From assembly GCA_964415615.1 (NCBI GenBank), contig CAYQAW010000005.1, positions 1,902 to 65,901 of the forward strand: a stretch of DNA of 64,000 nucleotides, in the 5' to 3' direction. Positions 36,636-64,000 of the stretch are shown here, one piece after another. The notes under the pieces were generated by a model. It searched no databases. It was not told where the DNA came from and saw nothing but the letters and a program-made list of their open reading frames with translations. The stretch comes from an uncultured Gammaproteobacteria bacterium (lineage in GTDB: Bacteria > Patescibacteriota > Microgenomatia > Daviesbacterales > UBA10151). How positions within the stretch are numbered: position 1 is the stretch's first letter; the number at the start of each line of letters is the position of its first letter. The position numbers and the translations under genes were made by a program.

Positions 36636-37523
36636 ATGGGTAGGCATGCTAGAAGAATAACTCTCTTTATACCTATAGCTTATATTATTGTTGTTAGTAT
36701 TTTTCTGTTTTGGCACAGGGTAGGATTTTCTCCTGATCAGTTTTTTGCAGTTGCCCTTCTTATTACTCTTATTATTGGCAGATCAAAACAATTTGTGCTG
36801 GATTGGTCGGTTCCTGTGGTTTTATTTTTGAGTTATGACTATTTGAGAGGACTCCTGCCTAAATTAACTCAGCAAGCCCATATATTCCCAATGATTAATT
36901 TTGACCAAGCAATTTTTGGAAATTTACCTACAAATAGTTTACAAAATGTGTTTTATTCTGACGGAGCAATTCATTGGTACGATTATTTGGCAACTGTTTT
37001 ATATATGTCACATTTTGTAGTCCCTATGGTGGTGGCTTTCTTATTTTGGTTAAAAAGCAGGGAAGATTTTAGGAATTATTCTCTAACTCTTTTAGTTTTA
37101 TCTTATGCTGCCTTTATAACCTTTCTTATATTTCCAGCAATGCCCCCTTGGATGGCTGCCCAAAAGGGTCTTATTCCGGAGATTACTAAAATAATGGATC
37201 AGGTTTTTGCAAATCTGCCTCAACGGGTTGATCTGCCCAGCTTTTATAAATTTGTTGGCGCTAATTTAGTGGCAGCGGTCCCATCCTTACATGCAGCTTA
37301 TCCTGTGATTACTTTTTTGTTTTTAGCGCGAAAATATAGAAAGTGGGGTTTGCTGATTTTACCCTATGTTCTGGGTATATGGTTCTCTATAGTTTATCTT
37401 GGGGAACATTATGTTCTTGATATTGTGGTTGGTGTTGTGTATTCCCTAATTGCATTTAGCTTAGTTATGTATAGCGGAGAAATTTGGCGGCGAAATCCGA
37501 AAATATACAATTTAAATAAATGA
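36636..37523 (+). CDS. Polytopic membrane protein of the PAP2 superfamily (PAP2_3-like)
   Basis: Multiple TM helices; PSLHAAYP motif. Confidence 0.4.
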   Translation: MGRHARRITLFIPIAYIIVVSIFLFWHRVGFSPDQFFAVALLITLIIGRSKQFVLDWSVPVVLFLSYDYLRGLLPKLTQQAHIFPMINFDQAIFGNLPTNSLQNVFYSDGAIHWYDYLATVLYMSHFVVPMVVAFLFWLKSREDFRNYSLTLLVLSYAAFITFLIFPAMPPWMAAQKGLIPEITKIMDQVFANLPQRVDLPSFYKFVGANLVAAVPSLHAAYPVITFLFLARKYRKWGLLILPYVLGIWFSIVYLGEHYVLDIVVGVVYSLIAFSLVMYSGEIWRRNPKIYNLNK

Positions 37524-50244: not shown

Positions 50245-50715
50245 TTGGAGGAGGTGATAGATAAAATGGCAATCGTTAGATGGAATCCTATTAGAGCTAT
50301 TGATAGATTTTTTGATGATGATTTTGACTTTGACCTTCCTACACTTCCAGGCATATCAAGGCTGGCTGGACAAGGATTAAATCTTTATGAAACTGATAAT
50401 GAAATAGTAGCAGAGGCAGCTGTACCTGGTATTCCTGAAGACAAAGTGGATGTGACTGTTGATAACGGAGTGGTAAGAGTTACTGGCTCCTATGAGGATA
50501 CACAGGAAGATAAAGGTAAGAAAAGGTACTACATGTCATCTATGTCTTCTTCATACAATTATGCCTTTAGATTACCTGAAGGAGCAGTCAAAGACAAAGA
50601 GCCAGCTTGTGAATTAGATAATGGGGTATTAAGAATTAAGTTTGAAAAGGCTCAAAAAGCAGCACCAAAAAGGCTTAAGATTCTAACAAAATCTAAACCA
50701 AAAGAGCTCCAATAG
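50245..50715 (+). CDS. Small heat-shock protein (Hsp20 / alpha-crystallin family)
   Basis: Alpha-crystallin domain pattern (VRVTGSYEDTQ...GVLRIKFEK). Confidence 0.8.
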   Translation: MEEVIDKMAIVRWNPIRAIDRFFDDDFDFDLPTLPGISRLAGQGLNLYETDNEIVAEAAVPGIPEDKVDVTVDNGVVRVTGSYEDTQEDKGKKRYYMSSMSSSYNYAFRLPEGAVKDKEPACELDNGVLRIKFEKAQKAAPKRLKILTKSKPKELQ

Positions 50716-50740
50716 AGTTGCCTAAGGGAGGTAAGAGAGT

Positions 50741-51196
50741 ATGGCAAAAGAATTTGTGACTAAAACAGGTAATACCCTAGCATGGGTGGCGATAGGAATT
50801 TCAATCCTAGCATTGATTATTTCTCTTATGGCTTTAAACCAACCAGCTAGAGTAAGACCAGCTTCAGAAACTGCCTCTCAGGATTTACAAACTCAAATTA
50901 AGTCACTTCAACAACAATTTGATATAAATCAAGCCCGTCAAAAATTAGAGGATGTAAGGCAGAGAGTAGCCACAGGTGGTGCAGATATGACACAAATACA
51001 AAAGGATATAGCACAAATTAGAAATGATTTAAGAGAAAGATTTCAAAATGCAGCAGAGATAACTAAACAATCTTGGCAACAATTAGATGATGAGTTAAAC
51101 CAGGTGGAAATAAGTTTAAAGGAAGGTGGAGCTAATATTTTAGATGCTATAGATAAAGCTATAAATACATTGAAGACAAAAATCAGATATGGATAA
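50741..51196 (+). CDS. Hypothetical membrane-anchored coiled-coil protein
   Basis: One TM segment, then heptad-like Q/L-rich sequence. Confidence 0.4.
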   Translation: MAKEFVTKTGNTLAWVAIGISILALIISLMALNQPARVRPASETASQDLQTQIKSLQQQFDINQARQKLEDVRQRVATGGADMTQIQKDIAQIRNDLRERFQNAAEITKQSWQQLDDELNQVEISLKEGGANILDAIDKAINTLKTKIRYG

Positions 51197-62155: not shown

Positions 62156-63349
62156 TTATGATGTCAGTTTTTGGATAGCTTCGTCAAGTGTGAGAGCTTC
62201 CTGGGTTTTTCCGCCAGCTGGCGGATTAAGGTTTTTGAGCATAACTTTATTTAAAGCAGCTTCTTCTGGGCCAATGATAATTACAAATGGTATTCCTTTT
62301 TGATCAGCATATTTGAGCTGTTTTTCCAGCTTAGTTTTTGGATCTAACCAGAGTTCGGAATTGATACCCCGTAAACGTAGCCGATCGGCTACATCTATGG
62401 CAACTGGGGACAGATCTTTATTAAAAATGGTCACCAGGACTTTGGTGGTAGTTAAATCTTTTGGAAACAAATCCATCTGGTCCATAGCTTCAATAACCCT
62501 GTCAAAGCCAAAAGCTACTCCGACAGCTGGGATTTGTTTATCAGCAAACATGCCAACTAAATTATCATATCTTCCGCCACCAGCCACTGATCCAACACTG
62601 TAACCTTCAATTTCTACTTCAAAAATCATGCCAGTGTAGTAATCAAGTCCCCGGGCTAAGGTAGGGGAAAATTCTACTCTATCTTCTAAAGCCATTAAAA
62701 TAGTTTTGATAGTTTCAGTAGGCTGTGAACTTTCAAATTTTTCTACTAAATTTGCAGGAAAGCCTGCTTCAGCTAACTGGTGAGAGACCTGTTCTTTACC
62801 AATTTTTTTCAGTTTATCAATGATCCTGATTGCCTGAGAAGACATTCCTACGAAAAGCTGACGGTCATTTATTAAGACCTTAAATTTTTTAAACCCTAAT
62901 GATTCTAAACACTTAATACTACAGGCAATTACTTCTGCATCAGAAAGAGGGGAGTCTAGTCCTACAGTATCAATATCACACTGTAAAAACTCCCTGAATC
63001 TGCCTTTTTGAGTATTTTCTGCTCTCCAGACAGGTTGAATCTGGTATCTTTTAAATGGAGTAGGGAGTTTATCACCATATTCTGCTACAACTCTAGCCAA
63101 AGGCACAGTTTGATCATATCTTAAAGCTACTTTTCTGCCACCATTGTCTGTAAAACGGTACATTAATTTATCGCCTTCCGTACCATATTTGCCCAAGAGT
63201 ACATCTTCGTACTCCAAAGCAGGGGTTTCTAAAGGTTCAAAGCCATAAGATTCAAAAACCTTTTTTAAAATATTTATGACATATTGCCTCTTCCTGGCCT
63301 CACCAGGTAAAAAATCCCTAAATCCTTTTAATGTTTGAGCTTTAATCAT
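62156..63349 (-). CDS. hisS: Histidyl-tRNA synthetase
   Basis: N-terminal KGFRDFLPGEA, class II motifs, anticodon-binding C-terminal domain. Confidence 0.9.
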   Translation of the reverse strand: MIKAQTLKGFRDFLPGEARKRQYVINILKKVFESYGFEPLETPALEYEDVLLGKYGTEGDKLMYRFTDNGGRKVALRYDQTVPLARVVAEYGDKLPTPFKRYQIQPVWRAENTQKGRFREFLQCDIDTVGLDSPLSDAEVIACSIKCLESLGFKKFKVLINDRQLFVGMSSQAIRIIDKLKKIGKEQVSHQLAEAGFPANLVEKFESSQPTETIKTILMALEDRVEFSPTLARGLDYYTGMIFEVEIEGYSVGSVAGGGRYDNLVGMFADKQIPAVGVAFGFDRVIEAMDQMDLFPKDLTTTKVLVTIFNKDLSPVAIDVADRLRLRGINSELWLDPKTKLEKQLKYADQKGIPFVIIIGPEEAALNKVMLKNLNPPAGGKTQEALTLDEAIQKLTS

Positions 63350-63524
63350 AGTCTTCTCCTATCTTAACAACTTTAGCAGCAACTGTAAATTTATTACACT
63401 TTTGTTCAACTTCTCCCAAATATCTATTTATTATTTCACTTCTCTGAATTTGAGGACAATTCCAAACTAATAAAGTGGAATTACCTCCAGCAATAGTAAG
63501 CTTTTGTCTTCTCATTCTTCCCAT
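63342..63524 (-). CDS. Small ORF (60 aa) with SD AAGGAG; translationally coupled into hisS; function unknown
   Basis: ATGATTAA overlap with the hisS start. Weak resemblance to the N-terminus of DapF-like epimerases; not reliable. Confidence 0.25.
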   Translation of the reverse strand: MGRMRRQKLTIAGGNSTLLVWNCPQIQRSEIINRYLGEVEQKCNKFTVAAKVVKIGEDYD

Positions 63525-63706
63525 CTCCTTAATAGAATTCTTCCTTCACCTAACGGTAAACCCTCTCCTAAAACATCTCTCACTCTTTGTACATACCTAC
63601 TATCAGCATCTCCTAATATTTGAGCATCCCAATCAGGGGTAGTCTCTTCACTTGCAAGAGCATCAAATATTTCTGACATAGATGGTCTGTTATTAAATTT
63701 TTCCAT
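63512..63706 (-). CDS. Small acidic ORF (64 aa) immediately after the second terminator; may be spurious
   Basis: ATG directly follows the T-run. No similarity recognised. Confidence 0.2.
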   Translation of the reverse strand: MEKFNNRPSMSEIFDALASEETTPDWDAQILGDADSRYVQRVRDVLGEGLPLGEGRILLRRWEE

Positions 63707-63759
63707 AAAAAAACTCCCGTTCTTTGCTCATTACAAATGTAATGAACAAGGAACGAGAG
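63707..63759 (-). terminator. Rho-independent terminator (long imperfect hairpin plus U7) on the minus strand
   Basis: Minus strand reads ctctcgttccttgttcattaca-tttg-taatgagcaaagaacgggag-ttttttt. Confidence 0.6.
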
Positions 63760-63790
63760 GTATCCGACTTCGCTCATACTCATGAGCATT

Positions 63791-63813
63791 AAAAAAGGAC
63801 CTCCCGCGGTCCC
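63791..63813 (-). terminator. T-box terminator hairpin (GGGACC-GCGGGA-GGTCC plus U6)
   Basis: Minus strand reads gggaccgcgggaggtcc-tttttt. The 5' arm overlaps the T-box consensus. Confidence 0.65.
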
Positions 63814-64000
63814 ATCCTGTTTGTCTCGATGATTACTCATCAGACCTCTTGGTGGCGACTTTGGTTTTCCAACATCGTCTGTTTTATTTAACGGTTAAAC
63901 TTCCGTAGAGTATTTGGCTCTCAACTCCTGGATCGTGACTCCAGTACAAACGCTTTTAAACTCCGATTAAATCGGAGCCAATATTCAATTGTGTAATTAG
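63791..64000 (-). ncRNA. T-box riboswitch leader (His-specific) regulating hisS; 5' end may extend past the window edge
   Basis: The minus strand contains AAACAGGAUGGGACCGCGGG, which matches the T-box consensus AAUUAGGGUGGNACCGCGG. UGGG fits discriminator C73 of tRNA-His. An upstream stem has CAC in a loop context (ggagtCACGatcc), with a GAGAG element nearby. There is no ORF across this region. Confidence 0.55.

Follow-up and report, generated by a model that had tools for sequence, protein, structure and literature searches.

Does a bacterium of the candidate phyla radiation (CPR) govern its histidyl-tRNA synthetase gene, hisS, through a T-box, a tRNA-sensing leader RNA that has been treated as a mostly Gram-positive device? 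The question is raised by one end of a 64-kb stretch of contig CAYQAW010000005.1 (the window, by which we mean the whole stretch analysed), where a first-pass annotation, made from the letters of the DNA, had proposed a histidine-specific T-box with tandem terminators upstream of hisS, and had remarked that its presence would be notable if the organism belonged to the CPR. The proposal is supported, with refinements. All of the features that it listed are present where it had placed them, on the minus strand, and the element that they compose, at about 63992-63704 (leader coordinates refer to the minus strand throughout), is almost certainly a bona fide histidine T-box. The host is a CPR bacterium (Candidatus Daviesbacteria, Microgenomates), since the product of the first open reading frame under the leader (ORF1) matches, at 100% identity, a protein of Candidatus Daviesbacteria (lineage Patescibacteria/Microgenomates).

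Judged from its sequence, the leader probably functions as a histidine T-box riboswitch controlling an operon made up of ORF1, a gene remnant and hisS. We favor a mechanism with two checkpoints, one at each of two terminator-like hairpins (T1 and T2), to which we assign a probability of about 55%. More tentatively, somewhat short of even odds, the leader may represent an undescribed class of T-box, widespread in Microgenomates, in which a minimal decoder lacking the Stem I elbow is joined to transcription termination at two sequential checkpoints, with T2 doubling as a sequestrator of the Shine-Dalgarno (SD) sequence.

Results

Conservation and covariation of the leader

HisRS relatives were gathered from 80 genomes of Daviesbacteria, Levybacteria and other Microgenomates (57-72% identity). 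The exact motif GGAUGGGACC(G/A)CG lies on the hisS strand, 0.25-3.2 kb upstream, in 16 of the 80, and a covariance model of the family recovers the leader at 18 of these hisS loci, one of them carrying a 3'-truncated relic. A metagenome scan in which the discriminator position was left free (N) yielded about 25 further leaders among the matches listed (at least 120 stretches); no other amino-acid specificity occurs among these matches, and every true member carries UGGG and CAC. The resulting set holds at least 42 distinct homologous leaders from Microgenomates genomes and metagenomes, which are cited below by locus number. The relic (L005:3522-3668), about 330 nt upstream of hisS, has lost Stem III, the T-box sequence and the terminators by deletion, and keeps the promoter, Stem I with its CAC, Stem II, the pseudoknot and the linker hairpin.

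Covariation was assessed in a MAFFT alignment of 36 leaders against a hand-specified structure. In all, 89% of cells are paired, compared with 32-46% in slid controls; compensatory changes fall in 34 of the 43 pairs, and none of 500 shuffles reaches the observed values, pseudoknot included. The covarying elements are the Stem I base helix, Stem I, Stem II, Stem IIA, the IIB pseudoknot, an extra hairpin and Stem III; three of them (Stem I, Stem II and the pseudoknot helix) also emerge independently from RNAalifold. The window leader scores 184 bits on the family model, and folding of the whole 311-nt leader gives z = -4.95. A further match of the family model, at 50680-50822 (15 bits, E = 0.3), lies inside a coding sequence and is noise.

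The covariance-model search that the first-pass annotation had named as a check gave a divided answer. At the gathering score, Rfam reports no family in the whole 64-kb window, tRNA included. In E-value mode, the best match, and the only plausible one, is to the T-box model RF00230; it runs the full length of the model (positions 1-219) with 20.4 bits against a gathering score of 93, a shortfall that arises from the collapse of Stem I, where 76 model positions are replaced by 7 nt, and not from absence of a T-box; Stem II, Stem IIA, Stem III and the T-box sequence all fit well in the same alignment. RF00230 likewise gave no T-box match in any of 16 homologous leader loci tested. The low score, along with decay elsewhere at the locus (the remnant ORF2) and the truncated leader of L005, could be taken as signs of a fortuitous similarity, or of a T-box that has decayed and lost its function. 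We regard this as extremely improbable: the window copy is complete and well matched to the family model, covariation is strong across lineages whose HisRS proteins are only 57-72% identical, and the T-box motif is rare by chance. The 14-nt pattern AGGRTGGNACCRCG has a single exact match in the whole window (63818-63805), and with up to one mismatch there are two matches, against 0.04 expected by chance. The second of these (AGGATGGGACCGCT, 37274-37287, minus strand, one mismatch) is antisense within a gene for a 295-aa membrane protein (36636-37523, plus strand), with no leader features around it and no match to the family model, and is probably a chance occurrence.

The decoding module

Every member of the family has a Stem I of 5 bp capped by a 7-nt apical loop (coordinates of all features are collected in Table 1). 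Covariation is seen in four of its five pairs (for example GG/CC to CC/GG, or GA/UC; 94% of cells paired) and in all three pairs of the basal helix beneath it (AGC/GCU, GAC/GUC, UCC/GGA, UGC/GCA; 96% paired). The kink-turn (K-turn) consensus, a 3-nt bulge plus tandem GA/GA with both strands considered, is present in 10 of the 36 leaders; the window has G-UA opposite GA, and the K-turn at the base of Stem I is canonical only in part. The CAC triplet that had been noticed in a stem-loop context is the Specifier codon, displayed in the apical loop of this hairpin. It is found in 42 of 42 distinct leaders, lies in a region with positions invariant among the 36 aligned leaders (A25, G26, C28, A29, C30 and G31), and is complementary to the anticodon GUG of the tRNA-His genes in L104, L155 and L188.

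The GAGAG element noted on first reading proves to be the 5' strand of Stem II, a hairpin of 4-6 bp across the family with the conserved loop C(C)AAAAU, in which all five pairs show compensatory changes (91% paired) and loop positions A50, A52 and U53 are invariant. Stem IIA follows (ACGG-AAGUUUAA-CCGU; 99% paired, two of three pairs compensatory), and the IIB pseudoknot has compensatory changes in all four pairs (GUUU/AAAC, GUUG/CAAC, GUUA/UAAC, GUC/GAC; 92% paired). Within Stem IIA/B lies an F-box-like CCGUUAA, conserved among leaders as CCGUWAA. The extra hairpin, in the linker between pseudoknot and Stem III, has compensatory changes in seven of eight pairs (86% paired), and some relatives carry a long insertion at this position.

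The discriminator and the antiterminator

All eight pairs of Stem III show compensatory changes (81% paired in the MAFFT alignment), with A116, G117, G119 and A143 invariant. Its flanks, with Stem III between them, match the RRRxG-Stem III-AA discriminator motif described in PMC7583486, and both the flanks and the F-box-like motif, invariant in the aligned leaders, agree with that description. The close match to the T-box consensus that had been reported is AAACAGGAUGGGACCGCGGGAGG, which Rfam aligns to the T-box consensus AGGGUGGUACCGC; UGGG occupies the bulge in 42 of 42 distinct leaders, and the whole bulge UGGGACC is invariant.

The T-box strand can pair with CCUCUCGUUCCU, the 5' arm of T2, to give an antiterminator in which helix A2 (GCGGGAGG/CCUCUCGU) and helix A1 (AGGA/UCCU), with a partner strand at 63760-63749, leave the 7-nt bulge. 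An antiterminator mutually exclusive with the hairpin at 63791-63813, on which the first-pass annotation had staked its case, is therefore present. With T2 it has the 3' strand in common; with T1, the bulge and the A2 strand. Pairing is kept in 93% of cells, compared with 42-62% when the strands are slid (26 distinct strand pairs), and the strands show conservative one-sided changes only (G-U to A-U, G-C to G-U). The length of the A2 loop varies within the family between 6 and 101 nt; the insert hairpin that it holds here is common to the window and L007 only.

The predicted tRNA-His ligand

The tRNA-His genes of L104, L155 and L188 have the anticodon GUG, a G-1 and the discriminator C73, and UGGG is complementary to the CCCA-3' end of such a tRNA. 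The earlier remark that UGGG suits tRNA-His is thus borne out for these relatives, and is established for them only. A tRNA-His(GUG) gene (G-1, C73) stands directly after T2 and ahead of hisG in four loci (Table 1), and in L155 it abuts the T2 U-tract. In those relatives the T-box would control the gene for its own ligand, a logic that, to our knowledge, has not been described before. The sequence in L075 (935-1006) and one on the minus strand of L106, just downstream of the leader, are tRNA-His-like but unusual in the T-arm, which reads GAGCAUUAC and not the customary GGUUCGAAUCC; neither is called by ARAGORN, and that of L075 scores 49 bits on the Rfam tRNA model.

Terminator-like hairpins and predicted switching

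The earlier observation that the 3' half of the T-box sequence forms the 5' arm of a GC hairpin followed by U6 was confirmed by a terminator scan. This hairpin, T1 (-10.8 kcal/mol, z = -2.2; 4 of 200 shuffles fold as well), takes its 5' arm from the bulge that binds the tRNA acceptor end, and its 3' arm and U-tract lie inside the A2 loop. It is present in 41 of the 42 distinct leaders, with a U-run of at least 5 in 39, and occurs in two registers, GGGACC/GGUCC in 35 leaders (plus one with a loop insertion) and GACCGC/GCGGUC, then U5-8, in five. Retention in 41 of 42 leaders in two registers argues for selection on the hairpin and U-run as such.

The second, longer hairpin ending in U7 was also where it had been predicted (z = -8.0; none of 200 shuffles folds as well). 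Homologous hairpins of -20 to -43 kcal/mol followed by U5-7 are found in 29 of the 42 leaders; the base, CCUCUCGUUC/GAACGGGAGG, is conserved, and the distal part varies in sequence between leaders with pairing kept. Its 5' arm is formed by CCUCUCGUUCCUUGU, the same stretch as the antiterminator 3' strand, which makes T2 a canonical T-box terminator. Two terminator-like hairpins upstream of histidine genes might also suggest a classical leader-peptide attenuator with a His-rich small ORF, as in the enterobacterial his operon. The only ORF overlapping the leader (63840-63613) has 3 His in 75 aa, none adjacent, and the conserved elements are covarying RNA helices, not codons. Leader-peptide attenuation was rejected because the leader has no His-rich ORF, and we give it practically no weight.

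Natural variants bear on how the two hairpins are used. T1 is the only expression platform in L013; L123 has T2 only, without T1, and a 6-nt A2 loop; and the L120 group combines T1 with an SD sequestrator lacking a U-run. As read from their sequences, these variants show that each platform can apparently stand alone. Some metagenome contigs, L120 (1126+ and 4666-), L152, L156 and L160, carry a pair of near-identical histidine T-box leaders, one on each strand with some 3.5 kb between them; these drive convergent operons (hisG-hisE and others on one side, an M15 peptidase on the other), and have as their second element an SD sequestrator, UUCCUUGGG/CCUGAGGAG, that lacks a U-run.

Predicted folds give an outline of the switch. 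With nothing blocked, the minimum is an OFF state containing T1 and T2 (-46.4 kcal/mol). Blocking UGGG, which mimics the tRNA 3' end, first gives a weak AGGA/UCCU mini-antiterminator, and when the distal strand is available as well, the full antiterminator becomes the minimum-energy fold (-24.6 kcal/mol). In the mechanism that we favor, tRNA-His would dock through its GUG anticodon on the CAC codon and, if uncharged, would pair its 3'-CCCA (discriminator C73) with UGGG. The first decision would then be a direct competition between the tRNA 3' end and T1 (GGGACC/GGUCCU plus U6) for UGGG; with UGGG held by the tRNA, RNA polymerase would be able to pass the first U-tract, perhaps assisted by the transient mini-antiterminator. 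At the second decision, CCUCUCGUUCCU, once made, would pair with GCGGGAGG and AGGA to complete the full antiterminator, with the T1 3' arm looped out in A2, and this would block T2, whose 3' arm is also predicted to hide the SD of the first gene. With no tRNA, or with charged tRNA, T1 and T2 would both fold, and transcription would stop or the read-through RNA would be untranslatable. One may speculate that the T1 U-tract serves as a pause, which would give more time to this sensor without a fast contact at the elbow.

Several observations weigh against this mechanism or against the T-box assignment beneath it. The RF00230 score is far under the gathering threshold. No S-turn or loop-E internal loop was recognised in the short Stem II, and the Stem I elbow platform, held to be necessary for transcriptional T-boxes (PMC7583486), is absent. 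T1 alone is a modest hairpin, and the mini-antiterminator is weak (-3.6 kcal/mol). The antiterminator helix has no true covariation (one pair, within the shuffle range), which is uninformative here because both strands are nearly invariant. Finally, ARAGORN finds no tRNA gene in the whole 64-kb window, and C73 is consequently taken from the relatives.

These points leave room for other uses of the two hairpins. It is possible, although we think it unlikely, that the leader is a histidine T-box of which only T2 is regulated, T1 being a constitutive pause, a partial terminator or a structured A2-loop insertion that does not respond to tRNA. The variable length of the A2 loop that houses the T1 3' arm, the absence of T1 from L123, the weakness of T1 and the near absence of an A2 helix from the mini-antiterminator would all fit, as would the frequency of A2 insertions in T-boxes with a short Stem I (PMC7583486). 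We nevertheless prefer two regulated checkpoints, since T1 with its U-run is nearly universal and has been re-created in a second register, since its 5' arm is exactly the tRNA-binding bulge, and since it is the sole platform of L013.

Less probable still, and doubtful in our view, is a T-box that acts mainly on translation, as in the actinobacterial ileS class. Under it, the second hairpin would be an SD sequestrator and the U-runs would be incidental in an AT-rich genome. A short Stem I with an apical Specifier loop has so far been tied to translational control; in 20 leaders, the GGGAG(G) of the T2 3' arm has a start codon 6-7 nt beyond it, which opens hisG, the M20 peptidase gene, a gene of about 220 codons described below or ORF1 homologues; and the L120 group has its sequestrator without a U-run. 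However, a long GC-based hairpin runs directly into U5-7 in 29 leaders, T1 is also followed by U5-8, a separate SD lies farther downstream in L008, L009 and L015, and L075, L104, L155 and L188 have a tRNA gene after T2, so that no SD is hidden there. Termination at both hairpins, with SD sequestration by T2 in addition, remains the reading that we prefer.

Genes under the leader and the 5' end

ORF1 has three further homologues (69-77% identity), occupies the same position in L003 and has no Pfam family. ORF2 shares 13 nt with ORF1 and 8 nt with hisS. By BLASTP against the 219-aa protein of L008, its residues 4-41 correspond to 1-38 and its residues 38-56 to 201-219; it is an internal-deletion remnant, since the first 38 or so and last 19 or so residues of that protein are fused. 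The gene for this protein of about 220 aa is intact in L007, L008, L041 and L171, with the motifs IAGGNSTLLV and MMGNELSINATLA, and Pfam has no match to the family. Its members are consistently under histidine T-box control, and L004 (3817-3999) retains a C-terminal remnant only. The distance of about 435 nt and the two small ORFs between leader and hisS had been called unusual. The ORFs are there; the arrangement is ordinary for the family, because the leaders of relatives head operons of 0.25-3.2 kb that end in hisS, as is the case at all 17 leader-bearing hisS loci (16 relatives and the window).

Relatives have hisG, hisI, hisE and hisD under the leader, and also genes for a SLOG-family protein, for M20 and M15 peptidases and for a HisRS-like paralogue; histidine-related genes (hisS, hisG, hisD, hisI, hisE and the paralogue) always lie downstream. 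The first gene is an M20 peptidase in L027 (2110-3270), L146, L154 (1629-2765) and L168, an M15 peptidase resembling D-Ala-D-Ala dipeptidase in L120 (3868-4575, minus strand) and L185 (1533-2216), and a SLOG/LOG-like protein (SLOG cluster 4) in L002 (2343-2897), L008 and L176. This hints that the response of these CPR bacteria to histidine shortage includes peptide cleavage besides HisRS synthesis. HisRS-like proteins of 290-304 aa without the anticodon-binding domain, perhaps HisZ-like, are encoded in L123 (4567-5448), L154 (2783-3655) and L132 (a 304-aa ORF, minus strand); these genes take the position that full-length hisS has in the window, and their downstream neighbors (EamA transporter, L31 and RF1) are the same as there. 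L132 also has a hisS start (MIKAQTLKGFR...) that runs on into unrelated sequence. At many Daviesbacteria loci, the part of the histidine pathway encoded beside hisS stops at the early steps (HisG, HisE, HisI), and others have longer operons; L001, L009, L013 and L132 have hisG, hisI and hisE only, and L075, L110 and L155 have hisG, hisD, hisC, hisB and more.

The promoter of relatives (L009, L003, L002 and others) consists of TTGACA, 17 nt and TATACT, followed by AATTACACAAT. Most of the promoter falls beyond the end of the window, and exact-sequence look-ups with HisRS and ORF1 gave no recorded contig reaching past 64000, so the remainder is supplied from these relatives; the window end truncates the promoter only, and the leader itself is complete. 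The hairpin at the transcript start, which has counterparts of different sequence at the same place in L009, L011, L036 and L171, is possibly a stabiliser of the 5' end.

Table 1. Features of the leader and its operon in the window, with tRNA-His genes that follow T2 in relatives.
Feature	Position	Strand	Sequence or content	Basis
-10 box remnant	63999..64000	-	CT (of TATACT)	Alignment with L009, L003, L002 and others
Optional 5' hairpin, transcript start	63960..63980	-	GCUCCGAU-UUA-AUCGGAGU	-10.2 kcal/mol, z = -4.1
Segment between 5' hairpin and Stem I hairpin	between 63980-63960 and 63944-63928	-	AAAAGCG	Read from sequence
Stem I basal helix	63923..63954	-	AGC (63954-63952) with GUU (63925-63923); encloses K-turn-like internal loop and Stem I hairpin	
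Ultrashort Stem I, 5-bp stem	63928..63944	-	CUGGA-GUCACGA-UCCAG; 7-nt apical Specifier loop GUCACGA	Covariation, RNAalifold, Rfam alignment
Specifier codon (His)	63935..63937	-	CAC, then invariant purine G63934	Conservation
Short Stem II hairpin	63907..63921	-	AGAG(C)/CUCU; conserved A-rich loop CCAAAUA	Covariation
Stem IIA and IIB pseudoknot	63881..63905	-	CGG/CCG (63905-63892); GUUU (63900-63897) with AAAC (63884-63881)	Covariation
Extra linker hairpin	63855..63879	-	GACGA.../...UCGC with inner UUGG-AAAA-CCAA	-7.2 kcal/mol, z = -3.3
Stem III with flanks	63823..63850	-	Stem 63845-63823; 5' purine flank AAGAG (63850-63846); 3' AA	Covariation
T-box sequence	63800..63822	-	AAACAGGAUGGGACCGCGGGAGG	Read directly; A147-C157 invariant in 36 leaders
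A1 5' strand	63813..63816	-	AGGA	
T-box bulge (7 nt)	63808..63814	-	UGGGACC; UGGG at 63814-63811	
A2 5' strand	63800..63807	-	GCGGGAGG	Part of T-box sequence
T1 hairpin	63791..63813	-	GGGACC-GCGGGA-GGUCCU, then U6	Terminator scan
Lineage-specific hairpin in A2 loop	63772..63787	-	GCUCAU-GAGU-AUGAGC	Predicted folds
Antiterminator 3' strand (5' arm of T2)	63745..63760	-	CCUCUCGU (A2) and UCCU(U)GU (A1)	In 40/42 leaders
T2 terminator	63707..63760	-	20-bp hairpin (one C-A mismatch), then U7	-27.8 kcal/mol
SD inside T2 3' arm, and start codon	63704..63718	-	GGGAG (63718-63714), U7 spacer, AUG (63706-63704)	Read directly
ORF1, 64-aa conserved hypothetical, first gene	63512..63706	-		100% identical to NCBI HYT74_01970 (Ca. 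Daviesbacteria)
ORF2, 60-aa remnant	63342..63524	-	N-terminus fused to C-terminus of gene for ~220 aa	BLASTP
hisS, 397 aa, last operon gene	62156..63349	-	Histidyl-tRNA synthetase	Pfam tRNA-synt_His 8e-44, HGTP_anticodon 2e-14
tRNA-His after T2	L104:3735-3809	+		
tRNA-His after T2	L155:4528-4600	-		
tRNA-His after T2	L188:1842-1914	+		
tRNA-His after T2	L075:935-1006	+		

Discussion

The leader is, by its sequence and predicted structure, a non-canonical T-box that couples a class III-like sensor to a putative dual expression platform. Class III T-boxes, the actinobacterial ileS leaders, have a short Stem I without the elbow platform, place the Specifier in an apical loop of 5-6 nt and require Stem II (PMC10482949). 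Our leader resembles those of Nocardia farcinica and Mycobacterium tuberculosis (Sherwood 2015 via PMC7583486, PMC10482949) in its short Stem I without an interdigitated T-loop platform, in the apical-loop Specifier followed by a purine, in the Stem II domain with IIA/B pseudoknot, in the purine-flanked Stem III, and in the UGGN bulge, the helix A2 insertion and the SD hidden in an alternative hairpin. Several features set it apart: it reads histidine (CAC) and not isoleucine, its apical loop has 7 nt, its Stem II is 4-6 bp with an A-rich loop in place of a long Stem II whose S-turn (a string of five purines) latches the codon-anticodon duplex, it has the extra linker hairpin and twice shows the features of an intrinsic terminator (hairpin plus U-run), and its host belongs to the CPR/Microgenomates and not to the Actinobacteria. 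Control through the SD only is a class III trait; here the SD lies in the T2 3' arm, yet T1 and T2 are each followed by U5-8 in most members.

The comparison with class I (Bacillus subtilis tyrS type; RF00230) is complementary. The two share the T-box sequence, the mutual exclusion of antiterminator and terminator through a common strand (T2 here), a base of Stem I that is K-turn-like in part, the order Stem II, IIA/B, Stem III, and the read-out of codon and discriminator. The distal two thirds of Stem I (the Specifier internal loop with its S-turn, the AG bulge and the distal loop platform) are gone here, and upstream stands one more terminator-like hairpin, which takes in the bulge itself. 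In general, the platform of a long Stem I is required for transcriptional T-boxes, and an ultrashort Stem I goes with translational control, often with helix A2 insertions (PMC7583486). The lineage-specific "stem Sa" inserted in the antiterminator/terminator domain of the staphylococcal glyS T-box (PMC9177973) offers another precedent for a structured insertion in the switching domain; there it is an accessory stem, whereas here a terminator-like hairpin, which pairs with the bulge, draws its 3' arm and U-tract from the insertion.

As to specificity, Firmicute histidine T-boxes, such as those of hisS and of the Lactococcus lactis his operon, reportedly use a CAC Specifier to control HisRS and biosynthesis genes, and are said to have a long Stem I and a single terminator. 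The regulon of the relatives studied here adds M20 and M15 peptidases, a SLOG-family protein and a tRNA-His gene.

In the open-access literature, the part that we searched, no paper was found joining T-boxes with CPR, Patescibacteria or Microgenomates, which is not proof of novelty. The short-Stem-I (class II) model of TBDB was run on Actinobacteria only. Standard detection routes would miss this family, as RF00230 fails on every member tested and the TBDB model is limited to that phylum.

Should the two-checkpoint mechanism be true, it would define a class of T-box that joins elbow-free decoding to transcription termination, a coupling that should be kinetically unfavorable according to current models, and does so through an undescribed switching geometry in which the first terminator pairs with the bulge itself. 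The family, in which a short-Stem-I sensor is joined to terminator-like platforms, is a natural test of the claim that a transcriptional T-box depends on the elbow platform of Stem I to capture tRNA fast, and the leader could also serve as a native regulatory part for CPR genetics. For the organisms themselves, the leader indicates that ultra-small, reduced genomes keep a sophisticated tRNA-sensing RNA to manage histidine supply, from the synthetase and partial or full his pathways to dipeptidases and even tRNA-His; in some relatives, the switch would drive the tRNA-His gene and the ligand would control its own synthesis.

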